In this document: positions 7,368 to 23,349 of the stretch, in pieces | Layout: each line of letters begins with the position of its first letter | How positions within the stretch are numbered: the stretch's first letter is position 1 | From: a virus | Virus genome (UHGV): UHGV-0373904 | Direction: 5' to 3' (one strand) | Length of the DNA: 64,000 nt | Made by a program: the position numbers and the translations under genes | Notes under the pieces: generated by a model | Database searches by the model: none | What the model saw: the letters and a program-made list of their open reading frames with translations, nothing else | Told to the model about the DNA's origin: nothing

Positions 7368-7901
7368 CTATAATTGTAGGTTGCATTCTTTACTTACCTC
7401 TTCAAGTTTAACCTCAGAATCCTTAAGTCGTTTCTTATGAACTCTGAACCTCATTAGTGAGATGATGATACCAGCTAAAGGAACAACATACAAGTACCAA
7501 ACATCATATACCTTTGCAGTAATCTGTGTAATGGTCAAGTCTTGAGCTATGTAGCTGATTGCTGATACAGCTAGTAATGTTGCTAAGAAGAAAACCAGTA
7601 TCATAACAATATTCAGACAACCTCTGGCATGGTATTCATGCTTAATGCACTTATTCTTCTCTTCAACAACCCTGTTGTAGTCATTTGTAAAGTCTCTGTA
7701 GAAAGCTTTTAAGTATTCTTGAGTGTAGCCTTCAAAGCAACCTGTACCGTACCAATAATCACCACCAAAATGTGCTATGATACCAGTATCCCCATTTGGT
7801 TTGGTTACTCTTAGTGAAGTATGATGACCAGTCTTCTGATAATCTATCTTGTATCTTTCTTCGTAAATCATTTCCCAACCCCTCTCAATCGTTTGTTCCA
7901 C
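7368..7901 (-). CDS. Hypothetical membrane protein (177 aa)
   Basis: Two hydrophobic segments (IVMILVFFLATLLAVSAISYI and LYVVPLAGIIISLM) in the C-terminal half. Confidence 0.5.
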   Translation of the reverse strand: MEQTIERGWEMIYEERYKIDYQKTGHHTSLRVTKPNGDTGIIAHFGGDYWYGTGCFEGYTQEYLKAFYRDFTNDYNRVVEEKNKCIKHEYHARGCLNIVMILVFFLATLLAVSAISYIAQDLTITQITAKVYDVWYLYVVPLAGIIISLMRFRVHKKRLKDSEVKLEEVSKECNLQL

Positions 7902-13965: not shown

Positions 13966-14337
13966 ATGAAAAACAGAACAAACAAAGGCCAGTTTAAAAA
14001 AGGCCAGTCTGGAAACCCATCTGGAAGACCAAAAGGCTCTCGTAACAAAAGCTCACTCGTAAAAGCTCAACTGACCATTGATAATTCTGCTGAGTTTGCT
14101 GCAAAGCTGTTTGAGGCGATTGTTACAAGGGATGCTGCTAAGCTTGCAGAGTTCGGGTTAAACACAGACGATGTAACCATCAAGAGTATGATTGAGGTCG
14201 GTAAAACTATCATGACTCACTCAGCAGGTGAGATGAAAGCAATTGCAGCAGACACTAAGAAGGCTCCTGATAACGGTGGTCAGTCTCAGACAGACAACAA
14301 ACCAACGTTCTCTGCTGTTGCAACCCTTAAAAAATAA
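13966..14337 (+). CDS. Hypothetical protein (123 aa), basic Gly/Pro-rich N-terminus
   Basis: ORF; N-terminus KGQFKKGQSGNPSGRPKGSRNK. Confidence 0.5.
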   Translation: MKNRTNKGQFKKGQSGNPSGRPKGSRNKSSLVKAQLTIDNSAEFAAKLFEAIVTRDAAKLAEFGLNTDDVTIKSMIEVGKTIMTHSAGEMKAIAADTKKAPDNGGQSQTDNKPTFSAVATLKK

Positions 14338-14349
14338 TTTTAAAAGATG

Positions 14350-14378
14350 TTGACAGACTCTATAAAGTTACTCTAAAG
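14350..14378 (+). promoter_or_regulatory. Candidate promoter with embedded 9-bp inverted repeat (tgacagact / agtctgtca)
   Basis: aaaagatgTTGACAgactctataaagttactctaaagtctgtca; the -35 hexamer forms one arm of the palindrome. Confidence 0.45.
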
Positions 14379-14418
14379 TCTGTCACATCAAACAACAAAT
14401 GAGAGAAGAGAGTAAAAT

Positions 14419-15834
14419 ATGAGCGAGTTATTTAAACATGCGCACCTTCATGCAGGTCGAACTGAAAATGGTGCTGTAAACCATACTTCATCAATGTCTG
14501 CTCTTGTAGATTTTTACAAAGCTGCTGGTTCAAGCCGTAGCAATGTAGAAATCTTACCAGACTTGTTCTACAAAGCTTTGCGTGAGGATGTTGATGTTGC
14601 AGTTCGTATTTTGCTTCACATGCGAGATGTACGAGAAGGTATGGGTGAGCGTAAAGCCTTCAGAACTGTTTTACTTCAAGCAATCGAAGACAAAGTTTTA
14701 GAGCCTACACAGGTTCTTCGTATTATGGATAAGATTGCAGAACTTGGTCGTTTTGATGACTTCAAAATCTTCGTAGGTACTCGTTTTGAGACAGATGCCT
14801 TTAAGCATTTAGAAGCAGCATTACTAGACCATGAGACAGCAGGTTTAGCAGCCAAGTGGTTACCACGAGTAAAACCACGACACAAACAGTTTGTAAAACG
14901 TTTCTGCAAGTTTGCTAACTTGAGTGAGAAAGAGTACCGCACACTGCTATCTGCACTGTCTGATACGGTTGAGCAAAAAATCTCTGCTAATGAGTTTGGT
15001 AAGATTGATTACAGCAAGATTCCTTCACTTGCTGCTGCACGTTACCAAAAACTGTTTAACCGTAAAGATGGAGAGCGCTACAAAGCTTACATCGAGTCCT
15101 TATCAAAGGGTGAGACTAAGATTAATGCTGGTGCTGTTTACCCATACGATGTGATTAAATCTGTTAAGTATGGTAATGCAGATGTTGCTAATGAGCAGTG
15201 GAAAGCACTACCAAACTGGATGGCAGAGGGTGAAAACATTCTATGTATGTCTGATGTTTCAAGTTCAATGTCTTGGGTGAATTTTGGTTCAATTACTGCT
15301 CTTGATATTGGTGTTTCACTTGCATTGTATGTAGCAGAACGTAATACAGGTTGCTTTAAGAATGAGTTGATGGTTTATTCAACAAACCCTCACTTCATTG
15401 AACTGAGTGGTGATTTACGAAACCGTCATCGTCAGGTAATGCGTCATGTTGAATACGGTTCAACTAACTTACAAGCAGCTTTTGACCGCATTCTTGAGAC
15501 AGGTAAGAGAAACAACTTGACTCAGAAAGATATGCCAAGTAAGCTTATCATCTTCTCTGATATGGAGTTCAATCAGGTTGACGGTGCAAATGGTCGTACA
15601 AACTTTGAAGCAATTCGTAGTAAGTACAAAAAAGCTGGATACGAAATGCCACAACTGGTATTCTGGTACTTAGCAAACCGTAGTGGTACTTGCGAAGTAT
15701 CTGTTAAGGATAACGGTGTAGCAATGGTATCAGGGTTCTCTCCAGCCACTTTAAAAGCTCTTCTTGGTGGTGAGAAGTTTGACCCAATCAGCGTAATGCT
15801 CAAAGCAGTAATGATTGACCGTTACATCTGGTAA
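14419..15834 (+). CDS. vWA-like (MIDAS motif) domain protein, 471 aa; TROVE/Ro60-like RNA-binding protein is a hypothesis
   Basis: C-terminal half has DxSxS in ILCMSDVSSSMS followed by hydrophobic strands (LIIFSDMEF); N-terminal ~260 aa looks helical. Sits directly upstream of the tRNA array. Confidence 0.55.
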   Translation: MSELFKHAHLHAGRTENGAVNHTSSMSALVDFYKAAGSSRSNVEILPDLFYKALREDVDVAVRILLHMRDVREGMGERKAFRTVLLQAIEDKVLEPTQVLRIMDKIAELGRFDDFKIFVGTRFETDAFKHLEAALLDHETAGLAAKWLPRVKPRHKQFVKRFCKFANLSEKEYRTLLSALSDTVEQKISANEFGKIDYSKIPSLAAARYQKLFNRKDGERYKAYIESLSKGETKINAGAVYPYDVIKSVKYGNADVANEQWKALPNWMAEGENILCMSDVSSSMSWVNFGSITALDIGVSLALYVAERNTGCFKNELMVYSTNPHFIELSGDLRNRHRQVMRHVEYGSTNLQAAFDRILETGKRNNLTQKDMPSKLIIFSDMEFNQVDGANGRTNFEAIRSKYKKAGYEMPQLVFWYLANRSGTCEVSVKDNGVAMVSGFSPATLKALLGGEKFDPISVMLKAVMIDRYIW

Positions 15835-15851
15835 AAAGTTTTAAAAAGGGT

Positions 15852-15880
15852 ATTGACAATGTGTTTAATACCCTTTAATA
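15852..15880 (+). promoter_or_regulatory. Sigma70-type promoter (TTGACA-N17-TAATAT) overlapping a 9-bp perfect inverted repeat
   Basis: aaaaagggtaTTGACAatgtgtttaataccctTTAATAT; inverted repeat aagggtatt / aataccctt spans -35 to the spacer. Confidence 0.65.
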
Positions 15881-15943
15881 TGTTCTACATAGAAACGAAA
15901 TGAGAGCTTTTCTAAGATACTGAAAAATATTTTAAAAAAGTTC

Positions 15944-15972
15944 TTGACAACCACTAAAAAATAATGTTAAAG
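15944..15972 (+). promoter_or_regulatory. Candidate promoter upstream of first tRNA (A-tract, TTGACA) with inverted repeat aaccact/agtggtt
   Basis: aaaaaagttcTTGACAaccactaaaaaataatgttaaagtggtt; -10 ambiguous. Confidence 0.4.
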
Positions 15973-15999
15973 TGGTTACATAGAGTTTGAAAAGTTTAT

Positions 16000-16076
16000 C
16001 TCTGTTTAGCTCAGCTTGGTAGAGCGTTCCGTTTGGGGCGGTAAGGCCGGAGGTTCAAGTCCTCCAACAGAGACCA
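16000..16076 (+). tRNA. tRNA-Pro (anticodon TGG)
   Basis: Manual fold: acceptor ctctgtt/aacagag, T-arm ggagg-ttcaagt-cctcc, anticodon loop ttTGGgg, encoded CCA. Confidence 0.75.
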
Positions 16077-16083
16077 AATTAAT

Positions 16084-16161
16084 GTTCCAGTAGACAAAAT
16101 GGTAAAGTCACCACTCTTTCAAAGTGGATATCTGAGGGTTCAAATCCCTTCTGGAACGCCA
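16084..16161 (+). tRNA. tRNA-Glu (anticodon TTC)
   Basis: Acceptor gttccag/ctggaac, anticodon stem ccact/agtgg, loop ctTTCaa, T-loop ttcaaat, CCA. Confidence 0.8.
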
Positions 16162-16162
16162 G

Positions 16163-16252
16163 TTTTGACAGAAGACCAATTACAGCAAACTTAATCTTAT
16201 TCATCTGAAGGTAAATCGGACAAAGAAGAGATTTGGTCTGGTCATTAAGAAT
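16163..16252 (+). repeat. tRNA-array spacer element copy 1 (CAGAAGACCAAT...ATTTGGTCTGG hairpin-bounded)
   Basis: 5' cagaagaccaattacagcaa and 3' tttggtctgg can pair (agaccaa/ttggtct). Confidence 0.55.
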
Positions 16253-16329
16253 TGCGGGTATAGAGAAAGGGCGTCTCACATGTCTCATTAGCATGGTATC
16301 GGCAGGTTCGACTCCTGCACCCGCCTCCA
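16253..16329 (+). tRNA. tRNA with anticodon CAT (Met or Ile2/lysidine type)
   Basis: Acceptor tgcgggt/acccgcc (1:72 mismatch), anticodon stem catgt/gcatg, loop ctCATta, T-arm gcagg-ttcgact-cctgc, CCA. Confidence 0.65.
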
Positions 16330-16330
16330 A

Positions 16331-16403
16331 TTTTGCAGAAGACCGTATTCAGCAACAAAATACTTTTGCGGATAAAAGAAAAAACACGGTCTGGCAATGT
16401 ATT
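16331..16403 (+). repeat. tRNA-array spacer element copy 2 (CAGAAGACCGT...ACGGTCTGG)
   Basis: Same flanking motif with compensatory change (agaccg/cggtct). Confidence 0.55.
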
Positions 16404-16405
16404 AA

Positions 16406-16482
16406 GGTTAGGAAGCACATAAGGTATGTGCGGTCGCCTGTTAAGCGAATGGCACAGGGTTCGAATCCCTGACTAACCGCCA
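16406..16482 (+). tRNA. tRNA-Asn (anticodon GTT)
   Basis: Acceptor ggttagg/actaacc, D-stem gcac/gtgc, anticodon loop ctGTTaa, T-arm caggg-ttcgaat-ccctg, CCA. Confidence 0.8.
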
Positions 16483-16490
16483 AATTAAAT

Positions 16491-16578
16491 GTGTCGTTAT
16501 CCCGTAGATGGTAGCGGTGGGGACTGTAAATCCCTTGTCATTGAGACTCGGTAGGTTCGACTCCTACACGGCACACCA
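16491..16578 (+). tRNA. tRNA-Tyr (anticodon GTA), long variable arm
   Basis: Acceptor gtgtcgt/acggcac, anticodon stem gggga/tccct, loop ctGTAaa, 15-nt variable arm, T-arm gtagg-ttcgact-cctac, CCA. Confidence 0.8.
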
Positions 16579-16583
16579 ATAAA

Positions 16584-16660
16584 GGCTATGTAGTTTAACT
16601 GGAGAAAATACTCCCCTGTCACGGGAGATGATGTGAGTTCAAGTCTCATCGTAGCCGCCA
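16584..16660 (+). tRNA. tRNA-Asp (anticodon GTC)
   Basis: Acceptor ggctatg/cgtagcc, anticodon stem ctccc/gggag, loop ctGTCac, CCA. Confidence 0.8.
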
Positions 16661-16720
16661 ATTTTGAGAGGGCTATTTAGCCCCTCCCTTAAAGGGTTCT
16701 TACGAGTATCCTTTAAAGGA

Positions 16721-16800
16721 GCAGAAGACCAAATACAGCAAGAACGTATGAAAATTTCAAGCCAATTTAATTTTGAAAAATTTAAAACTTGGTCTGGCTC
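16721..16800 (+). repeat. tRNA-array spacer element copy 3 (CAGAAGACCAAATACAGCAA...TTGGTCTGG)
   Basis: Same motif; preceded by terminator-like hairpin agggc-tattta-gccct and a TTAAAGG..CCTTTAA palindrome (16661-16716). Confidence 0.55.
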
Positions 16801-16940
16801 AACAAATTTACAGAAGACCGTTTACAGCAAAACTTAAACAATCTATTTCTCGGTAAAGAAAAGGCGAAGGTTCGATTCCTTCACTCGGCAGATGTCGAGT
16901 TGGTGTAATGGTAGCACTTAAGATGATAAACAACGGTCTG
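16801..16940 (+). repeat. tRNA-array spacer element copy 4 (CAGAAGACCGTTTACAGCAA...AACGGTCTGG) enclosing tRNA-like fragments
   Basis: 8-bp closing stem agaccgtt/aacggtct; the interior holds a T-arm plus 3' acceptor-like segment next to a 5' acceptor plus D-arm-like segment. Confidence 0.55.
16863..16920 (+). pseudogene. tRNA-like fragments (T-arm gaagg-ttcgatt-ccttc plus actcggc, then gtcgagt plus D-arm-like tggtgtaatggtagcac)
   Basis: A canonical T-arm with 3' acceptor-like strand is followed 4 nt later by a complementary 5' acceptor-like strand and a D-arm; no complete cloverleaf could be folded in normal order. Confidence 0.4.
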
Positions 16941-17090
16941 GTAATTATCTTTGTAGATAAGTTATTAAGCTTACCTGTGAGTATGCGACCACAAAGGGTG
17001 AAAGGGTAAATTCTAGATTTAAACCCAAAAAGGCACATCGCTACAGACCTTAAGCAAGTCTGGGTAGCTTATCTGCAAAGATAATTTAAT

Positions 17091-17166
17091 GGAAGTGTAG
17101 CAGAATGGTGATGCGGCAGACTTTTAATCTGACAGGCGATGGGTTCGAATCCCTCCACTTCTACCA
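17091..17166 (+). tRNA. tRNA-Lys (anticodon TTT)
   Basis: Acceptor ggaagtg/cacttct, anticodon stem gcaga/tctga (one mismatch), loop ctTTTaa, T-loop ttcgaat, CCA. Confidence 0.7.
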
Positions 17167-17244
17167 AATTCACCCTTAACTGAGAAACACCTGCGCGGCT
17201 GGAAACACCCACTCAACAGTTTCTCTAACTAGGGTACTTATTCT

Positions 17245-17321
17245 GGTTCAGTCGCAGATAAGGTAATGCAGGGGTTTCATAAGCCCTATGAATGTGGGTT
17301 CGATTCCCATCTGAACCTCCA
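17245..17321 (+). tRNA. tRNA-Met (anticodon CAT); GGG/CCC in the anticodon stem is initiator-like
   Basis: Acceptor ggttcag/ctgaacc, anticodon stem ggggt/gccct, loop ttCATaa, T-arm gtggg-ttcgatt-cccat, CCA. Confidence 0.75.
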
Positions 17322-17322
17322 A

Positions 17323-17398
17323 GCTGGTATAGTTAAGAAGGTTATAACACTCCCCTGATAAGGGAACATCGGTGGTTCGATTCCACCTACCAGCACCA
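17323..17398 (+). tRNA. tRNA-Ile (anticodon GAT)
   Basis: Acceptor gctggta/taccagc, anticodon loop ctGATaa, T-arm ggtgg-ttcgatt-ccacc, CCA. Confidence 0.75.
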
Positions 17399-17413
17399 AT
17401 TTCAATAAAGTTG

Positions 17414-17442
17414 TTGACATTGAGATGTGACTACTTTATAGT
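17414..17442 (+). promoter_or_regulatory. Sigma70-type promoter inside the tRNA array (TTGACA-N17-TATAGT)
   Basis: aaagttgTTGACAttgagatgtgactacttTATAGT. Confidence 0.65.
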
Positions 17443-17445
17443 AAC

Positions 17446-17733
17446 TAAAACACTTCATAATATGTATAATTCAAACACCAATACATGAGCGTTAGACGTA
17501 ACACAATGTGGGGAAATTTGTTGTACATATTCTGAATAGTTTTCGTTGCGTAGCGTCTATTTTGAAAATTTAAAATAAATGCAAACGACAATGTTTTTCT
17601 GGCAGTAGCTTGATAGGCTAAACACCAGTGAGGTCTTCCAATCCCTCATCAAAGAATTTGGCGTACTCGCCCACGGTATGATTAATAAGGTGGGCATCTT
17701 TAAGGGCTTTCTAAGAGAGTCTTTAAAGATAAT
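17446..17733 (+). other. ORF-poor 290-nt segment downstream of a promoter inside the tRNA array; candidate non-coding RNA locus
   Basis: No tRNA fold found, no ORF of 60 aa or more; lies between promoter 17414-17442 and tRNA-Arg. Confidence 0.35.
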
Positions 17734-17810
17734 GCACCCTTAGTTCAATTGGATAGAGCAACGGTCTTCTAAATCGTTAGTTACAGGTTCGAATCCTGTA
17801 GGGTGTACCA
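17734..17810 (+). tRNA. tRNA-Arg (anticodon TCT)
   Basis: Acceptor gcaccct/agggtgt, D-arm gttcaattggatagagc, anticodon stem acggt/atcgt, loop ctTCTaa, T-arm acagg-ttcgaat-cctgt, CCA. Confidence 0.8.
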
Positions 17811-17952
17811 AATAGTTAGCAGATTACTTAGACGGCCTTAGCGGGTCTTCCTGTAGGGAGGTGGTCTGTATCTCATGTTTTCCAGAACATGTAAATAATC
17901 TGAGAAGAGGCTTGACAGTGTTGAGATAACAGGGTAAGCTTCGAATTATAAT

Positions 17953-18035
17953 ATGGGACGATGTTAAGACTCTAAGGCATGAGCAACGGCCTCCAAAACC
18001 GTTTCAAAGGGGTTCAACTCCTCCGTCCCATGCCA
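17953..18035 (+). tRNA. Non-canonical tRNA-like gene (possible anticodon CCA, Trp) with expanded D region and enlarged anticodon loop
   Basis: Perfect 7-bp acceptor atgggac/gtcccat plus GCCA end and T-arm agggg-ttcaact-cctcc; anticodon stem aacgg/ccgtt encloses a 9-nt loop cctccaaaa; D region is about 6 nt too long to fold canonically. Confidence 0.4.
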
Positions 18036-18048
18036 AAGTCTTATTAGG

Positions 18049-18136
18049 GGTAGGTAGCGGCTAATGGTAGCCAAACTGTCTTGAAAACAGTTGCCACTGT
18101 AGAGATACGGTGAGGGTTCGACTCCTTTACTTACCG
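18049..18136 (+). tRNA. tRNA-Ser (anticodon TGA), class II with long variable arm
   Basis: Acceptor ggtaggt/acttacc, anticodon stem actgt/acagt, loop ctTGAaa, ~20-nt variable arm, T-loop ttcgact; CCA not encoded. Confidence 0.75.
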
Positions 18137-18289
18137 CCTAATAAGATTTACTCCGTCCATGCTTGTTCGCATTGTCGGTTTATCCCTCGTGTATTGTCGT
18201 ACACTGTCAAAGCACCTAGTAGGTGTCACGGAGAAGAGATAATATCAAGCTCTCCAAAGGTTCTAGTCACCGGATTAAACAAGACTATG

Positions 18290-18312
18290 CAAAGACCTAT
18301 TTAGGTCTTTTT
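18290..18312 (+). terminator. Rho-independent terminator inside the tRNA array
   Basis: agaccta-ttt-aggtct perfect hairpin followed by ttttt. Confidence 0.6.
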
Positions 18313-18391
18313 AGAGGGCTTCTAAGGTTATTACAGCTTGTTGTGGAACCTTGTTGCTTAGGTTCTTAGAAGTTCTCTAAAAAGATTTAAT

Positions 18392-18468
18392 GCACCTATA
18401 GCCCAACTGGTAGAGGCAGCAGACTTAGAATCTGCTCAGTGTGAGTTCGAATCTCTCTAGGTGTACCA
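18392..18468 (+). tRNA. tRNA with anticodon TAG (Leu by code) but short variable region
   Basis: Acceptor gcaccta/taggtgt (close paralog of tRNA-Arg TCT), anticodon stem gcaga/tctgc, loop ctTAGaa, 5-nt variable region, T-loop ttcgaat, CCA. Confidence 0.6.
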
Positions 18469-18475
18469 AATTAAT

Positions 18476-18551
18476 GCAGGTGTAGCAAAATGGTTATGCG
18501 GCTGACTCTTAATCAGTAAGACGATGGGTTCAATTCCCTCCACCTGTACCA
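18476..18551 (+). tRNA. tRNA-Lys (anticodon CTT)
   Basis: Acceptor gcaggtg/cacctgt, anticodon stem gctga/tcagt, loop ctCTTaa, T-loop ttcaatt, CCA; paralog of tRNA-Lys TTT. Confidence 0.65.
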
Positions 18552-18557
18552 AACATT

Positions 18558-18633
18558 GGGGTCATAGTTTATATGGTTAAAATTCGAGTTTTGCAAACTT
18601 GGGAACTGAGTTCAATTCTCAGTGACTCCACCA
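18558..18633 (+). tRNA. tRNA-Ala (anticodon TGC)
   Basis: Acceptor ggggtca/tgactcc (G3-U70), anticodon stem cgagt/acttg, loop ttTGCaa, T-arm ctgag-ttcaatt-ctcag, CCA. Confidence 0.75.
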
Positions 18634-18639
18634 ATTAGT

Positions 18640-18714
18640 GCATCCATAGTTTAAACGGGAAAATTACAGTCTTCCAAACTGAGGTTGAGGGTTCGATTCC
18701 CTCTGGATGCTCCA
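18640..18714 (+). tRNA. tRNA-Gly (anticodon TCC)
   Basis: Acceptor gcatcca/tggatgc, anticodon loop ctTCCaa, T-arm gaggg-ttcgatt-ccctc, CCA. Confidence 0.7.
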
Positions 18715-18721
18715 AATTAAT

Positions 18722-18797
18722 GCTCCTATCGTATAATTGGCTATTACGGTTGCCTTGTAAGCAACTTATCAGGGTTCGAATCCTTGTGGGAGCACCA
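18722..18797 (+). tRNA. tRNA-Thr (anticodon TGT)
   Basis: Acceptor gctccta/tgggagc, anticodon stem gttgc/gcaac, loop ctTGTaa, T-arm caggg-ttcgaat-ccttg, CCA. Confidence 0.8.
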
Positions 18798-18887
18798 ATT
18801 CAGAGGTCAAGTGAAAGACCGCTTTGAGTCAACTGAAGACCGTAACAAATTCCACGGAGTTGAGTTAGCGGCACAACTCCAGACCTC
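18793..18887 (+). repeat. Structured spacer (agaggtc ... gacctct outer stem, inner hairpin ggagttg..caactcc, GAAGACCG motif)
   Basis: Nested inverted repeats; contains ctgaagaccgtaacaaa related to the CAGAAGACC spacer family. Confidence 0.45.
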
Positions 18888-18893
18888 TTTCAT

Positions 18894-18968
18894 ACTCGCT
18901 TAGTTTATATGGTAAAACATCACCCTTACAAGATGAAGAAAAAGGTTCAAGTCCTTTAGTGAGTACCA
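18894..18968 (+). tRNA. tRNA-Val (anticodon TAC)
   Basis: Acceptor actcgct/agtgagt, D-stem gttt/aaac, anticodon loop ctTACaa, T-arm aaagg-ttcaagt-ccttt, CCA. Confidence 0.7.
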
Positions 18969-18969
18969 T

Positions 18970-19047
18970 GTTCCAGTATCCCAATTGGCAGAGGATGCAA
19001 GCTCAAACCTTGTACTAGTGACGGTTCGAATCCGTCTTGGAACACCA
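18970..19047 (+). tRNA. tRNA with anticodon CAA (Leu by code) but short variable region
   Basis: Acceptor gttccag/ttggaac, anticodon stem gcaag/cttgt, loop ctCAAac, 6-nt variable region, T-arm gacgg-ttcgaat-ccgtc, CCA. Confidence 0.65.
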
Positions 19048-19052
19048 ATTTT

Positions 19053-19128
19053 GCAGGATTAGTTCAAATGGATAGAGCAACAGTCTACGAAGCTGTTAGT
19101 AGGGGTTCGAATCCCTTATCCTGCGCCA
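19053..19128 (+). tRNA. tRNA-Arg (anticodon ACG)
   Basis: Acceptor gcaggat/atcctgc, anticodon stem acagt/gctgt, loop ctACGaa, T-loop ttcgaat, CCA. Confidence 0.75.
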
Positions 19129-19146
19129 GATAAGCAAGAGGAATTT

Positions 19147-19389
19147 ATGCAAACATTAATCGTCGTTGAACATGAAAATCCCAATAGTATTGAGTTTGTA
19201 AGGGTTCCCACTATAGATACTCACATTTTCTTGAAAGTCGGATGGGAATGCGACCCGATAAAAGTAGGAAAATTTCTTGGTCATTACTTTGGTGGAAGAC
19301 AATTTAAAAGTATCAATTTTGAGACAGTATTACCAGAAAACTCAGAAACAGACAATAATACTTACCTCCTTACGAGGATTAGACAATGA
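19147..19389 (+). CDS. Hypothetical protein (80 aa) embedded in the tRNA array
   Basis: ORF with upstream aagaggaa RBS-like sequence. Confidence 0.4.
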   Translation: MQTLIVVEHENPNSIEFVRVPTIDTHIFLKVGWECDPIKVGKFLGHYFGGRQFKSINFETVLPENSETDNNTYLLTRIRQ

Positions 19390-19943
19390 GATACTTAAAA
19401 TATGTTTCATGGATTTTCTTAGCTTTGTTAGAACCATTTGCAGCAACCCTAGCAGTCATCTTAGCACCTTTCGTAGTTCCATTCTACAGTGAGAAGAAAG
19501 GGCATCTACCTTTTGGATTCAGATGGACGGAGACCTATGACAACCCTATTGATGGTGACAAAGGCCACGTTGAGAGATGGGCTAAGATTAGAAAGATTGG
19601 TAAGCTTGGTGTCTACATGCAGAGAGTTGGATGGCTCTGGAGAAACAAAGCTTATAACTTCTCTTACCATGTATTAGGAAGAGATGTAAAAGACGTTACT
19701 AAGTGGAAAGGTAATATCAACGTAAGTTCTAACCCTGAAGATAATCAAACAGGTTATCTCCTAATGTGGAACAGTAATGCTTGGGGATTATTCGCTTTTA
19801 TCCCATCAATTAAAATCTTTGGTAAACAGTTTTACTGGAGAATTTATATTGGATGGAAACTTAAAAGTGTTGTCCCAGAAGAAAGAGCATTCTCAAGGGA
19901 AAGAGTTATGTTGGCATTCTTTATTCATCCACTGAGAAAGTAA
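19386..19943 (+). CDS. Hypothetical membrane protein (185 aa) embedded in the tRNA array
   Basis: N-terminal hydrophobic segment WIFLALLEPFAATLAVILAPFVVPF; 4-nt overlap with the upstream ORF. Confidence 0.45.
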   Translation: MRYLKYVSWIFLALLEPFAATLAVILAPFVVPFYSEKKGHLPFGFRWTETYDNPIDGDKGHVERWAKIRKIGKLGVYMQRVGWLWRNKAYNFSYHVLGRDVKDVTKWKGNINVSSNPEDNQTGYLLMWNSNAWGLFAFIPSIKIFGKQFYWRIYIGWKLKSVVPEERAFSRERVMLAFFIHPLRK

Positions 19944-19951
19944 AGATTTAA

Positions 19952-20027
19952 AGGGGATTAGTTTACAAGGTTAAAACCTCGGTCTTTGAAATCGAAGAAG
20001 TTGGTTCAATTCCAACATCCCCCGCCA
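19952..20027 (+). tRNA. tRNA-Gln (anticodon TTG)
   Basis: Acceptor aggggat/atccccc (1:72 mismatch), D-stem gttt/aaac, anticodon stem tcggt/atcga, loop ctTTGaa, T-arm gttgg-ttcaatt-ccaac, CCA. Confidence 0.7.
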
Positions 20028-20029
20028 AT

Positions 20030-20108
20030 GCTCCATTACTCCAATTGGCAGAGAGGCCAGACTTAAAATCTGTGTTATGTATCGGTTCGAATCCGATATG
20101 GAGTACCA
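20030..20108 (+). tRNA. tRNA with anticodon TAA (Leu by code) but short variable region
   Basis: Acceptor gctccat/atggagt, anticodon loop ctTAAaa, 7-nt variable region, T-arm atcgg-ttcgaat-ccgat, CCA; paralog of the CAA tRNA at 18970. Confidence 0.65.
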
Positions 20109-20113
20109 AATTT

Positions 20114-20189
20114 AGCGGTATAGCATAACTGGCAATGCAACAGTCTCTGAAGCTGTCCTATTAAGGTTCAAATCCTTATGCCGCTGCCA
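20114..20189 (+). tRNA. tRNA-Gln (anticodon CTG)
   Basis: Acceptor agcggta/tgccgct, D-stem gcat/atgc, anticodon stem acagt/gctgt, loop ctCTGaa, T-arm taagg-ttcaaat-cctta, CCA. Confidence 0.7.
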
Positions 20190-20220
20190 CTTCTAAGGAT
20201 TCTTACGAGAGTCCTTAAAT

Positions 20221-20296
20221 GTGGCCTTATCATAAAAGGTAATGACCCATGCTGTGAACATGGTCTATACGGGTTCAAATCCCGTAGGTCACCCCA
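20221..20296 (+). tRNA. tRNA-His (anticodon GTG)
   Basis: Acceptor gtggcct/aggtcac, D-stem tcat/atga, anticodon stem ccatg/catgg, loop ctGTGaa, T-arm acggg-ttcaaat-cccgt, CCA; no encoded G-1. Confidence 0.75.
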
Positions 20297-20301
20297 ATTT
20301 A

Positions 20302-20378
20302 TAGTCCAAGTAGCTTATATGGTTAAAGCGCGTGTCTGAAAAACATGAGAAGAGGGTTCAAATCCCACTGGACTACCA
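20302..20378 (+). tRNA. tRNA-Phe (anticodon GAA)
   Basis: Acceptor tagtcca/tggacta, anticodon stem cgtgt/acatg, loop ctGAAaa, T-loop ttcaaat. Confidence 0.7.
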
Positions 20379-20394
20379 ATTTCAAAGGTGCTTA

Positions 20395-21129
20395 ATGAAA
20401 GAGATGACAGAACAAGGTAAGGAGATTTTTAATCTCTTAAAAACTGGTAAAGGGTTTTCTAACCCCCTTATTACTGGTGCAGCAGTTCTCGGTGGAACCG
20501 TAGCTGCCTCTACATCACTTGTAAGCTCTATTAGCTCTGTATCAGACCCTACAGTAAAGGATAAGCTTGTTGCTGCTGGACTTACAACAGTTCTGCTTAA
20601 CAGCTTTACCACGAGTCTGACAAGCACTACATCAACTACCAAAACACTAACAGATTACGGTCAAAAGTCCATTGATGAGTTTTCATCACGTATGCAGGTA
20701 GCAAAAGGTTACTCTAATGTTATGGGTGCAGCAGGTGAACAAGTTGGCTGTACACCGTTTAGTGGTATTATGGGCGTTGCTACAGAATATGGTCAAAAAG
20801 CTATTGACACAATTAACAGTGCACTAGATGTCGTTAATGATGTATTAAGTGACTTACAAGATGCTATTGACAAAGGTCTTGATACTATTTCTGATTTAGC
20901 TAACCAAGCTGTTAGTAAGATTAATGAAGGTATTTCGAAGATTACAGCTTATGCAGATGAAGTTGTGCAGATGATTGAAGAAGAAGCTGCTCTTATTGCA
21001 GAGTACCTTAAAACGAATATCAATGGGTTCTTAGCAGGTATCTTACCAGACTGGTTTGATGATGCTTGTAAAACTGGTGTGATTGACACTATTGCAACAC
21101 CAGAAATGAAGAACGCATTACAGAAATAA
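20395..21129 (+). CDS. Hypothetical Ser/Thr-rich protein
   Basis: ORF track start 20332 lies inside tRNA-Phe; the ATG at 20395 is preceded by aaagg. Ser/Thr-rich low-complexity N-terminal region. Confidence 0.5.
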   Translation: MKEMTEQGKEIFNLLKTGKGFSNPLITGAAVLGGTVAASTSLVSSISSVSDPTVKDKLVAAGLTTVLLNSFTTSLTSTTSTTKTLTDYGQKSIDEFSSRMQVAKGYSNVMGAAGEQVGCTPFSGIMGVATEYGQKAIDTINSALDVVNDVLSDLQDAIDKGLDTISDLANQAVSKINEGISKITAYADEVVQMIEEEAALIAEYLKTNINGFLAGILPDWFDDACKTGVIDTIATPEMKNALQK

Positions 21130-21130
21130 T

Positions 21131-21223
21131 GGAAGATTAACCCTAAAAGGTAAGGGAGCAGTTTGCTAAACTGCCAGTAGCTGAGAAATCGGTGTACCAG
21201 TTCAAGTCTGGTATCTTCCTCCA
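21131..21223 (+). tRNA. tRNA-Ser (anticodon GCT), class II
   Basis: Acceptor ggaagat/atcttcc, anticodon stem gcagt/actgc, loop ttGCTaa, 21-nt variable arm, T-arm accag-ttcaagt-ctggt, CCA. Confidence 0.8.
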
Positions 21224-21227
21224 ATTT

Positions 21228-21303
21228 GAATCCGTGACAGAAATGGCTATGTGCCTGTCTGCAAAACAGGTTTATAAGGGTTCGAGTCCCTTCGGATTCT
21301 CCA
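21228..21303 (+). tRNA. tRNA-Cys (anticodon GCA)
   Basis: Acceptor gaatccg/cggattc, anticodon stem cctgt/acagg, loop ctGCAaa, T-arm aaggg-ttcgagt-ccctt, CCA. Confidence 0.8.
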
Positions 21304-21340
21304 AGTTATTTTACTCTCTCTCAATTAAAATAATAATAAT

Positions 21341-21400
21341 GCCCTGCTATAAGTATTCTTCCTTTCGCTACCGAAGAGTATTTTTAGACAGGGCTTTTTT
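21341..21400 (+). terminator. Rho-independent terminator ending the tRNA array
   Basis: Long imperfect hairpin gccctg...cagggc followed by tttttt. Confidence 0.6.
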
Positions 21401-21525
21401 ACAGAGCTATACTTTATAAGAAGACTTATACAGTATGTCTCTGACGTACATTGTGGTTTCTCCTTGACGGTCTCTGTGCCGTCTTTTTTAAGGGGAAACA
21501 TGGTTAATTATTTGGAGAAAACATA

Positions 21526-21726
21526 ATGAGCGAGACCGTTTATAAAGAACTTTATGAAGCTAACAAGAAGCTAGAATTTATGCAGAATACTATCATGGCA
21601 ATTGCAGACAGATTATCTGTAGCAACAGGCATTGATATTAAAGAAGCATCTATGGATGCACTTCTTGATGCTGTTGATGCAAAGTTCGAAGTTAAGAAAG
21701 AAGAGACTGCTACAGACTCTGAATAA
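21526..21726 (+). CDS. Hypothetical small protein upstream of terminase (66 aa)
   Basis: ORF preceded by ggagaaaacataATG; too small for a typical small terminase subunit. Confidence 0.45.
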   Translation: MSETVYKELYEANKKLEFMQNTIMAIADRLSVATGIDIKEASMDALLDAVDAKFEVKKEETATDSE

Positions 21727-21747
21727 TTCTATTTGCGGAGGTGCTTA

Positions 21748-23349
21748 ATGGACTTAAATGCTGTTAAGCAGAAGCGAGTGGAAGATGTTAGGAAAGTCCT
21801 AGCTGGAGAGTTGGGGCTTTCTGATGAAGTAAAAGAAATTATCAAATCATTCGGTAAAGACCCCTCTAAATTCCTTCCAACTCAAATTCTGACTTTATTA
21901 AGATACACACCAGACCAAGTTCGCCTTATCTTTAAATTGATGACTGATAAGAACTATGTAGCCCCTCAGCCGGGTTCTCAAGAGGTCTTTTTAAATACTA
22001 ATGCTGACTTGGTTCTTTATGGTGGTGCTGCTGGTGCTGGTAAAACTGCTGCATTGTTAATGGACTCTTTAAGATTTATTGAAGACCCTAACTATAATGC
22101 TGTATATTTCCGTCGAAATACAACACAGTTACAAGGTGGTTTATGGCCTGCTGCAAAGAAACTATTTGGTAAGTTTGGTGGGATTCCTCACGAGCAGAAA
22201 ATGACTATTACATTCCCTTCTGGGGCAACTATTAAGTTTACCTACCTAGAACTTGAAAAGCACGCTGAAGGTCATCAGGGTATTGAATACTCAGCTATTT
22301 ACTTTGACGAAGGTACACATTTCTCTGCTTCACAGATTTCATACCTACAAACACGTCTACGTTCTGGTGCTGAAGGTGATTCATACATGAAGATTTCCAT
22401 GAACCCAGACAGAGACCACTTTATTTACGATTGGGTAGAACCATTCTTAGATGAAGAAGGTTATCCAGACCCTGAAAAGTGTGGTCGTATTCGTTGGTAT
22501 GTAATGAATGACGGTGTGATGGTTTCTGATTGGGAGAGAGACAAGATTCTTGAAATGTTCCCTCTTGAGATTCCTCAAACATACACCTTTATCTCTGGTA
22601 CGATTGATGATAACCCAATCCTTGACTTCTTAGAGCCTAAGTACCGTGGTAAGTTGGAAAACAACACCCCTGTAAACGTTGCAAGACTTCGTTTCGGTAA
22701 CTGGAAGGCTCGTGCAGAAGGTTCAAACTATTGGCAAAGACAATGGTGTGAGATTGTTGATTCACTCCCAGAAGATGTATTCGATGTTAGAGCATGGGAC
22801 TTAGCAGCAACTTTACCATCTGAGGTTAACCCTAATCCAGACTGGACAGCAGGTGTTAAGATGGGTAAATCTAAAAAAGACGGTTGCTATTATATCATTG
22901 ATGTAGTAAGATTTAGAGATAGACCCTCTGGAGTCGAAACACAAATTAATTTGACTGCTGAAAGTGATGGTAAGCGAACTGGTATTTTTATCCCTCAAGA
23001 CCCAGGCGCTGCTGGTAAATCCTACGCAACATCCCTCATCAGGAAACTTGCCGAGAAAGGCTATCGTGCAAGAGCTAAACCAACAAATAAAGATAAAGTT
23101 ACCCGATTTGCGGGGTTTTCTGCTGCTTCTGAAGCTGGACTTGTAAAAGTCTTGAGAGGTAGTTGGAATGAAGCTTACTTTCAAGAGCTTGAAGGCTTTT
23201 GTGGTGATGGCAAAACTAAAGATGACCAAGTGGATGCTACCAGTGATGCTTTCAACAGTCTTAACGAAGTTAAATTATTCAAGCCACCATCAATGGGTGC
23301 TCACACAGACTTAGTGAGAGGAAACCCATATGAGGGGCTTAGACGTTGA
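21748..23349 (+). CDS. Terminase large subunit
   Basis: Walker A YGGAAGAGKT near the N-terminus, size ~530 aa, sits directly upstream of portal. ORF track start 21733 is TTG; ATG at 21748 follows GGAGG. Confidence 0.85.
   Translation: MDLNAVKQKRVEDVRKVLAGELGLSDEVKEIIKSFGKDPSKFLPTQILTLLRYTPDQVRLIFKLMTDKNYVAPQPGSQEVFLNTNADLVLYGGAAGAGKTAALLMDSLRFIEDPNYNAVYFRRNTTQLQGGLWPAAKKLFGKFGGIPHEQKMTITFPSGATIKFTYLELEKHAEGHQGIEYSAIYFDEGTHFSASQISYLQTRLRSGAEGDSYMKISMNPDRDHFIYDWVEPFLDEEGYPDPEKCGRIRWYVMNDGVMVSDWERDKILEMFPLEIPQTYTFISGTIDDNPILDFLEPKYRGKLENNTPVNVARLRFGNWKARAEGSNYWQRQWCEIVDSLPEDVFDVRAWDLAATLPSEVNPNPDWTAGVKMGKSKKDGCYYIIDVVRFRDRPSGVETQINLTAESDGKRTGIFIPQDPGAAGKSYATSLIRKLAEKGYRARAKPTNKDKVTRFAGFSAASEAGLVKVLRGSWNEAYFQELEGFCGDGKTKDDQVDATSDAFNSLNEVKLFKPPSMGAHTDLVRGNPYEGLRR

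Follow-up and report, generated by a model that had tools for sequence, protein, structure and literature searches.

A tmRNA-derived RNA without a tRNA-like domain in the tRNA array of a Felix O1-like phage and in other enterobacterial phages

We report an RNA gene in the transfer RNA (tRNA) array of virus genome UHGV-0373904, of which a stretch of 64,000 nts (the 64-kb window, below simply the window) was analysed. The source genome is a Felixounavirus (Felix O1-like myovirus) and the element lies on the plus strand at 17449-17733, between tRNA-Ile and tRNA-Arg(UCU). It is a transfer-messenger RNA (tmRNA)-derived RNA without tRNA-like domain (TLD), widespread in enterobacterial phages and unannotated. 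This identity is well supported by the agreement between a start-less tag frame, a hairpin holding its stop codon and two pseudoknots; for its mechanism we propose that the RNA would serve as a coding piece in host trans-translation.

Tag frame, fold and transcription of the module

The tag frame (17581-17613, +) reads GCA AAC GAC AAT GTT TTT CTG GCA GTA GCT TGA, that is ANDNVFLAVA and a stop, and is directly followed by a second in-frame stop, TAG (17614-17616); the E. coli ssrA tag, for comparison, is ANDENYALAA with two stops. Six codons upstream of the frame there is an in-frame TGA (17563-17565), with no start codon between. The 34 homologues compared gave 22 distinct tag versions, each consisting of exactly 10 sense codons and a stop, and the first codon was GCA or GCT (Ala) in all 22; examples are ANDDQFLAVA, ANEEMYLAVA, ANDNTFLAVA, ANDDVVLMAA and ANDSEMRVAA. 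All versions have a hydrophobic end (..LAVA, ..LMAA or ..RVAA), and the stops UAA, UGA and UAG all occur among them. Variation was found at 10/10 third codon positions vs 10/20 first and second positions (Fisher p 0.011, 22 versions), and pairwise differences numbered 940 at position 3 vs 383 at position 1 and 407 at position 2. Replacements were conservative, D/E and F/Y at two positions, and the other two frames carried internal stops in 20/22 and 15/22 versions. Thus, as judged from its substitutions, the tag frame evolves in a codon-like manner, and because the constraint is exerted on codons we argue that the tag is decoded.

The frame is preceded by a leader (17539-17580, +) composed of a conserved 5′ box GUUUUCG, an A-rich single strand and AUAAAU right before the resume-type codon. 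ATAA at -6..-3 was invariant in 33 aligned sequences. On E. coli tmRNA the frame is set by U(-5)A(-4). These two bases upstream of the resume codon, U-5 and A-4, were reportedly described by Williams et al. in 1999 and by Miller et al. in 2008. The ATAA of the module matches the U(-5)A(-4) of E. coli tmRNA, which has AAUAGUC followed by GCA.

The last codons and the stop codon lie in the loop of hairpin H5 (17599-17628, +), formed by CUGG..CCAG and an inner 3-bp stem. CUGG/CCAG is changed to CUGA/UCAG in N4-like phages, and an inner pair is C-G in 19 sequences and U-A in 8. Two H-type pseudoknots follow. The first, PK-A (17629-17661, +), combines S1 (UGAGG 17629-17633/CCUCA 17644-17648) with S2 (CCAA 17638-17641/UUGG 17658-17661). 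S1 occurs as UGAGG/CCUCA, CAAGG/CCUUG and CGAGG/CCUCG, as CGUGG/CCACG in the Chaseviridae phage SKA49 and as CAGGG/CCCUG in phages Moogle and Sf17; S2 occurs as CCGA/UCGG, CCAG/CUGG and CCAA/UUGG. The second, PK-B (17662-17695, +), combines S1 (CGUAC 17662-17666/GUAUG 17676-17680) with S2 (GCCCAC 17669-17674/GUGGGC 17690-17695) and has a conserved loop GRURUGAUUAAUAA. Its S1 is 100% paired, with a closing pair C-G (26), U-A (5) or G-C (2), and at least six different complementary stems were found for its S2, so that both pseudoknots covary in all four stems. The named structure (21 pairs) was scored on 33 distinct sequences, with partners slid by 1-3 columns and 500 shuffles as controls. Standard pairs occupied 98.4% of cells vs 32-42% in the slid controls, changes on both sides were observed in 9/21 pairs, and 0/500 shuffles reached the observed pairing or covariation. 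These results establish the fold and its covariation.

An optional 5′ domain (17449-17541, +) is predicted to form a long, irregular hairpin that is interrupted by a 7x7 internal loop and capped by a GACG tetraloop. It is missing from many Felix-like relatives (query coverage 73%, in two pieces), the window representing the long variant, and it is present upstream of the module in SKA49, where it is predicted to fold identically and shows compensatory changes. On the other side, a 3′ hairpin (17696-17730, +; AUCUUUAAGGGCUUUCU..AGAGAGUCUUUAAAGAU) abuts tRNA-Arg; relatives carry a different, likewise self-complementary hairpin at this site.

We then compared these features with the Rfam models. 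The Rfam scan that the preliminary description had called for returned no family at gathering score between tRNA-Ile and tRNA-Arg (17399-17733). Below threshold, tmRNA models were recurrently the best matches at the module, in four lineages: tmRNA in the window (13.5 bits), beta_tmRNA at locus L005 (21.8 bits, E 7e-5 in 600 nt), tmRNA_permuted at L005 and in viral contig L085 (25.2 and 25.6 bits), and tmRNA_permuted and alpha_tmRNA in SKA49 (20.5 and 17.7 bits). The beta_tmRNA and tmRNA_permuted alignments placed the resume region and the tag on the model. A covariance model of the phage family detected a single copy in the window (17563-17706, 126.5 bits, E 4e-24) and gave 127-128 bits for relatives not used in training (Moogle, SUSP2 and Sf17); outside the family, it matched best the tag region of E. 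coli ssrA (67-141), with 17 bits and E 0.15. The weak model scores are individually non-significant, and it is their agreement with tag, hairpin and pseudoknots that carries the case. From this comparative evidence, well supported for identity and structure, we identify the conserved core (~17539-17700) as a homologue of the mRNA-like half of tmRNA.

The segment is preceded by a sigma-70-type promoter at 17414-17442 (+), with TTGACA at 17414-17419, a 17-nt spacer and TATAGT at 17437-17442. The preliminary description had singled out this near-consensus site, and the comparison bears it out: it scores 11/12, is the top match within the 9 kb from 14000 to 23000, and is kept in Felix-like relatives, even those with a different upstream tRNA. 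The same region shows no general excess of promoter-like sites (22 found vs 19.2 expected). The predicted transcription start is near 17449, and in short Felix-like variants the promoter stands 8 nt ahead of the GUUUUCG box. The upstream neighbour is tRNA-Ile (17323-17398, +; ARAGORN) and the downstream neighbour tRNA-Arg(UCU) (17734-17810, +; ARAGORN and Rfam); the RNA 3′ end is probably made by RNase P during 5′ processing of tRNA-Arg at 17733/17734.

Between these two tRNAs ARAGORN called neither a tRNA nor a tmRNA, and the longest overlapping open reading frames (ORFs) have 48 and 46 aa on the minus strand and 38 aa on the plus strand, so that the ~290 nt first described as free of a tRNA fold and of any ORF of at least 60 aa are indeed so, over ~285 nt. 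The segment 17449-17733 folds at -82.1 kcal/mol vs -56.4 +/- 4.4 for dinucleotide shuffles (z -5.86, 0/200 as good). This segment and two others in the array, treated below, show indels that are not multiples of three in relatives, together with compensatory changes; no conserved ORF was found on either strand of the main module among the 34 homologues. This supports the proposal that the phage tRNA cluster contains non-coding RNA loci driven by promoters. In PP886229 (L001 2278-2545) and MZ501086 (L002 2377-2517), minus-strand coding sequences annotated as 'hypothetical protein' overlie the tmRNA-like RNA, and relatives carry similar annotations over the Y RNA-like and tRNA-Ser-trailer segments described below. 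These are probably annotation artefacts, none being conserved as ORFs, and the homology to short conserved protein-coding genes that the preliminary description had named as a refutation is therefore not borne out. Small minus-strand protein genes (ORFs 17445-17591 and 17557-17697), which such annotations would favour, have a negligible likelihood in our view: across the 34 homologues the longest such ORF varies between 1 and 65 aa (median 12), it contains indels of 1, 5 and 8-10 nt, and substitutions track base pairing and the plus-strand frame. We rejected them on the lack of conserved ORF length.

Distribution of the module among phages

Positions 16600-18400 of the window match 284 phage records at 80-99% identity. 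A sensitive blastn search with 17399-17733 extended this to 615 phage records, many of which match only 17572-17696 (query 174-298), at 71-87% identity, and this portion alone matches non-Felix phages. When the whole array was compared with ~70 non-Felix loci, the only common stretch was this module, plus occasionally tRNA-Arg. The module thus occurs in at least eight unrelated phage groups. Among its carriers are the lambdoid phage HK633 (Hendrixvirinae), where it lies between Q/PR' and the holin gene, the Kuttervirus Cba120, where it lies within a 2-kb unannotated gap near tRNAs, the N4-like Schitoviridae Pollock and FSL SP-058, the Aeromonas siphovirus pIS4-A (Roufvirus), phage SKA49 and a 110-kb Klebsiella phage. 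It is also carried by prophages in 137 of 5426 complete E. coli genomes, where nothing is annotated. A 17-base PK-A pattern run over genome contigs (596 Gb) gave 69 matches, about the number expected by chance; the only real one was in a Pseudocitrobacter faecalis prophage. We conclude that the module is a self-contained unit of ~160-175 nt that has spread as such through unrelated phages.

Its position and orientation are regular. It is always found on the transcribed strand, either in or beside tRNA clusters or in the lambdoid interval between Q/PR' and the lysis genes. Promoter-like sites on the same strand precede it in three lytic lineages, as illustrated by TTGACA-16-TAGATT in pIS4-A and TTATCA-16-TATAGT in Cba120; its lambdoid copies follow PR' and tR' and share the strand of the late transcript.

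Several features of these loci were recorded as such. At many lambdoid loci (L005-L095) and at L003 (2376-2452 and 2627-2722), long hairpins (CA)GGUAAGAGCAUUG...CAGUGCUCUUUCC(R) flank the module; their interiors are highly variable, some with a T arm, and they resemble RNase III or RNase P-type cassette boundaries just after tR'. Contig L085, whose module carries the tag ANDQTFLAVA, has an RprA-like sequence (7371-7464; 63.9 bits, gathering 70) just past the tRNA-Ser downstream of the module. In SKA49 a tRNA-Leu(CAG) with a ~23-nt insertion in the D loop (L104 1789-1885) ends a 1-kb unannotated, apparently non-coding stretch that begins with the tmRNA-like module.

This distribution bears on two readings in which the RNA has no part in ribosome rescue or acts only in cis. 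The first takes it for a fragment of an old phage or host tmRNA, kept as a structured spacer that would help RNase P, RNase III or RNase E to cut the polycistronic tRNA transcript. The constant location in or beside tRNA clusters and the flanking long hairpins resembling processing sites would fit, as would the several stable RNAs of unknown function that T5 tRNA regions encode. A spacer, however, would not keep a tag frame, a resume context and two covarying pseudoknots over eight lineages, nor 71-87% identity while all flanking DNA is unrelated, nor its own promoter in lytic phages; we hold such a relic to be improbable. Still less probable is a cis-regulatory leader of the downstream tRNAs, for example a sensor of ribosome or tRNA status controlling read-through into tRNA-Arg(UCU). 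That tRNA follows the module in the window and stands downstream in several other lineages, but the neighbouring tRNAs of Pollock are on the opposite strand, HK633 has no nearby tRNA, and no terminator/antiterminator alternative was seen in the fold.

Stable RNAs of unknown function are also known from the tRNA region of T4, as species 1 and 2. The T5 counterparts (RNAI, RNAIII, RNAIV, RNA2H and RNAX) are similar to the present RNA in being non-tRNA RNAs of a phage tRNA cluster, and RNAX (719 nt) is flanked by promoter P16-17 and tRNA-Arg, the arrangement also seen in the window. They differ in having no sequence or motif match to the module: the T5 record (NC_005859 24000-44000) annotates eight 'stable RNA with unknown functions' in the tRNA region, and the phage-family covariance model found no match there, RNAX included.

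The missing tRNA-like domain and possible modes of action

The phage RNA resembles one-piece tmRNA (ssrA of E. coli; RF00023) in its Ala resume codon after an A-rich stretch with U(-5)A(-4), its ten-codon start-less tag beginning with AND... and ending with hydrophobic ..AA or ..VA, its stop codon in a hairpin loop and the pseudoknots after it. In contrast, it has no acceptor stem, T arm, CCA end, G3:U70 or long helix 2, and two downstream pseudoknots instead of three (PK2-PK4). Nor does a convincing PK1 stand out upstream of the resume codon: the leader shows only a small (U)CG..CG(A) hairpin, and the optional 5′ domain is a long hairpin rather than a pseudoknot. Its length is ~160-285 nt vs 363 nt, and its tag ends with LAVA, MAA or VAA vs ALAA. 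Two-piece (permuted) tmRNA is found in alpha- and beta-proteobacteria, in cyanobacteria and in phage Melnitz (PMC9004378; RF04321, RF01850 and RF01849). Like its coding piece, the module is a separate RNA with a tag frame, and the Rfam permuted and beta models align best, for instance over UAAAUGCAAACGAUGA...GCCUAA. Unlike the module, a true coding piece has the 5′ acceptor strand at its start, and its pairing partner is an acceptor piece whose gene lies immediately upstream; no such complementary piece accompanies the module in the window or at 8 other loci.

Since decoding of a start-less frame is what trans-translation does, we favour the reading of 17449-17733 (+) as a tmRNA-derived coding-piece RNA engaging host trans-translation, and we estimate its probability at about 0.45. 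The RNA would be released with a 5′ end set by the promoter and a 3′ end set by RNase P cutting of the adjoining tRNA-Arg, and would then enter host trans-translation as a 'coding piece'. During infection, rescued ribosomes would resume translation in the tag frame of the phage and append a C-terminal tag that the phage specifies (..LAVA, ..MAA or ..VAA), in place of the host ..ALAA or in addition to it. The alanine-charged, tRNA-like entry module would have to be supplied by another RNA. Candidates are host tmRNA-SmpB and the D-arm-less tRNA-like RNAs that lie beside the module in several lineages; other neighbouring candidates would be a minihelix-like mimic ending with CCA in Kuttervirus and the T-arm hairpins of some lambdoid phages.

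Several points weigh against this proposal. To our knowledge, trans-translation with an unlinked coding piece is without precedent. The Rfam tmRNA scores (13.5-25.6 bits) are far under the gathering thresholds of 47-84, and in a global alignment to E. coli ssrA the score outside the tag was no better than for shuffles. A tmRNA search by ARAGORN was negative in the window and at ~100 related loci, E. coli tmRNA being detected as a positive control. For GUUUUCG, no acceptor-piece partner (CGRRRRC beside a T-loop) was found in the window or at 8 loci. In lambdoid phages and Kuttervirus, each of the long hairpins on either side of the module pairs with itself and not with the other. Finally, the tRNA-like neighbours vary by lineage and some loci have none; such candidate partners are not universal, and this window has none.

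Other searches for a tRNA-like partner are described here. The alignment revealed no T arm inside the conserved module, and where the Rfam permuted models expect an acceptor piece of 111-118 nt, 18-25 nt were found at the module. A loose resemblance of the GUUUUCG box to the tmRNA UUCGAC box was noted by eye, without statistics; likewise, 7-nt complementarities between the module and host tmRNA, seen by eye, are within chance expectation. A closing helix formed by the ends (the 3′ strand of the upstream hairpin with the 5′ strand of the downstream one) was considered and rejected, the compensatory changes of L053 and L090 staying within each hairpin. On all these comparisons the tRNA-like domain is absent in cis. 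With neither such a domain nor a partner found, the gene is not a tmRNA gene and corresponds to the mRNA-like half only.

The same absence is what a decoy or inhibitor would display, which constitutes the main rival explanation and which we consider doubtful. The RNA would mimic the mRNA-like and pseudoknot part of tmRNA without ever being translated, would titrate ribosomal protein S1, SmpB on the ribosome or RNase R, or occupy rescued ribosomes, and would so damp host trans-translation in infection, as the mirror image of the TLD-only remnant of mycobacteriophage DS6A. Without a tRNA-like domain it would have no A-site entry on its own, and its pseudoknots and U(-5)A(-4) context are conserved. 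There is also a precedent for half a tmRNA in a phage: DS6A carries little beyond the TLD, and tmRNA is inhibited by a molecule of this kind (Hudson, Lau and Williams 2014, PMC4131195). On the other hand, a decoy needs no constant 10-codon frame or third-position-biased substitutions, and no conservative replacements, interchangeable stops or hydrophobic tag end. DS6A and the present phages are alike in having only one tmRNA half; they differ in that DS6A keeps the tRNA-like domain without the tag, whereas the module keeps tag and pseudoknots without that domain, and in that the module occurs in many enterobacterial phage lineages vs one phage. Taken together, the two halves suggest that phages manipulate trans-translation with partial molecules. 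In an exhaustive ssrA census (PMC4131195), mycobacteriophages and Bacillus phage G were the only phages with ssrA, and searches of a partial literature library yielded no report of a TLD-less tmRNA-like phage RNA.

In its more specific form, the coding-piece reading would make the module a free-standing tmRNA 'coding cassette' which, in many lineages, re-programmes host rescue without a covalently linked tRNA-like domain; we regard this version as unlikely. The cassette might join non-covalently with an adjacent D-arm-less, alanine-type tRNA-like RNA. Alternatively, RtcB-type ligation might splice it into cleaved host tmRNA; a passage of PMC11090510, citing Kotta-Loizou 2022, gives ssrA as the most frequent RtcB substrate reported.

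Two types of tRNA-like neighbours were observed beside the module. At three Felix-like loci (L054 3881-3965, L029 and L065) a D-arm-less tRNA-like gene replaces the canonical tRNA-Arg(UCU) after the module. It combines an acceptor CGGGGCG/CGCCUCG (G3:U70), A73 and CCA with a long extra arm and an anticodon loop with UCU, and is uncalled by ARAGORN; it may be an alanine-type acceptor. In Cba120 (L004 ~2664-2733) and other Kuttervirus a ~100-nt cassette starts ~35 nt past the module and comprises a T arm GAAGG UUCGAGU CCUUC, a GAAA-capped hairpin and ..CUCCAAUC-CCA, that is, a minihelix-like tRNA mimic without anticodon. It is precisely absent in L049, and beyond it lie more tRNA-like elements ending with NCCA.

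Other RNAs of the array and significance

ARAGORN called 26 tRNAs in 16000-21303, every one on the plus strand. The preliminary description had noticed similar structured stretches at 16941-17090 and 18137-18391, and both were confirmed by folding and by compensatory changes. The second segment (16936-17090, +) has a multi-branched fold with a closing stem of ~24 bp (z -4.98 vs dinucleotide shuffles, 0/200 as good). Between Felixounavirus and the Moogle and Susp viruses its closing stem changes in a compensatory way (UAGAUAAG/CUUAUCUG vs CAGUGAC/GUUACUG), as does an inner hairpin (CAGAC/GUCUG vs CAAACC/GGUUUG), and no homologues were found outside Ounavirinae. The third segment (18139-18391, +; z -2.89, 2/200 as good) is the non-coding trailer of tRNA-Ser, with small hairpins, a terminator-like hairpin and a long hairpin before tRNA-Leu; its core is ~95% conserved out to Mooglevirus, with a 1-nt indel, and outside Ounavirinae tRNA-Ser alone matches. 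The clean terminator proposed at 18290-18312 stood in part: a 7-bp stem (3 G-C) followed by a T run is present, but it is unlisted in the terminator scan, and in the minimum free energy fold the T run doubles as the 5′ strand of the next long hairpin. Neither segment had an Rfam match; both are structured, non-coding and confined to Ounavirinae.

Two further elements were noted among the tRNAs. A long hairpin ACCCUUAACUGAGAAAC...GUUUCUCUAACUAGGGU occupies the gap between tRNA-Lys and tRNA-Met (17167-17244, +) and is missing in relatives L001 and L002, whose tRNA-Lys and tRNA-Met stand 4 nt apart. A tRNA-like sequence at 17952-18036 (+) is uncalled by ARAGORN, its sole Rfam match being tRNA-Sec with 23 bits. 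It has a 7-bp acceptor stem, a discriminator G with CCA, an irregular D region, a 9-nt anticodon loop CCUCCAAAA and a T loop UUCAACU identical to that of E. coli tmRNA; TTGACA/TATAAT-like hexamers with poor spacing lie upstream.

Directly upstream of the array, a 471-aa gene (14419-15834, +) encodes a protein with Pfam DUF2828 and DUF7788, assigned to a PHROG 'RNA-binding protein' and annotated under that name in relatives. Its AlphaFold2 (AF2) model has a predicted local distance difference test (pLDDT) of 87. In a Foldseek search of this model against the PDB, the nine best full-length matches were all Ro60/TROVE proteins (Ro60 or Rsr), with probability 1.00, template modelling (TM) scores of 0.5-0.64 and E 4e-8 to 1.5e-6. 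A PDB sequence search with the DUF2828 protein gave no matches, so that only the fold search revealed the relationship; on the predicted model, the product is a structural homologue of Ro60/TROVE. Four Y RNA-like modules (16167-16244, 16334-16397, 16720-16800 and 16809-16944, all +) are sited between tRNAs. They share a conserved 5′ strand CAGAAGACC and a terminal helix 5'-NNC-AGA-AGACCnn...nnGGUCU-GNN-3' that has an AGA bulge and N positions that covary. The last of them, 16809-16944, encloses in order a T arm (16866-16882), a closed acceptor-like stem-loop (16883-16900) and a D arm (16903-16917), the closed stem covarying in Sf17, SUSP2 and Moogle. The same circularly permuted tRNA order is found in the S. 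Typhimurium Y RNA YrlA (bioRxiv 10.1101/312249). The Rfam YrlA model did not match the Y RNA-like modules of the window, and we assign 16809-16944 as a YrlA-type Y RNA by architecture only, beside a same-strand gene with a Ro60 fold. Besides its tRNAs, the Felix-like array thus appears to bring together Y RNAs, a Ro60 partner for them and a coding RNA that is tmRNA-like, which suggests that Felix-like phages bring an RNA quality-control toolkit beyond tRNAs.

In the present model tmRNA acts exclusively as a hybrid of tRNA and mRNA, which a conserved half-molecule with selection at the codon level does not fit: either the coding piece can do without a tRNA-like domain linked to it, or phages make use of an RNA that imitates the tag template. 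About 600 records of the phage collection contain the module, which is annotated as nothing or as spurious 'hypothetical proteins', and its carriers include therapy and biocontrol phages (Felix O1-like, Kuttervirus) as well as prophages of pathogenic E. coli. Phages may thus tamper with ribosome rescue in a manner not yet described, and whether they rewrite the host degradation tag on aborted proteins becomes testable. If the coding-cassette reading is true, the products of stalled ribosomes in infected cells would receive a phage tag (..LAVA) and an altered fate, and the module would represent a new mode of trans-translation and a new class of viral takeover RNA.

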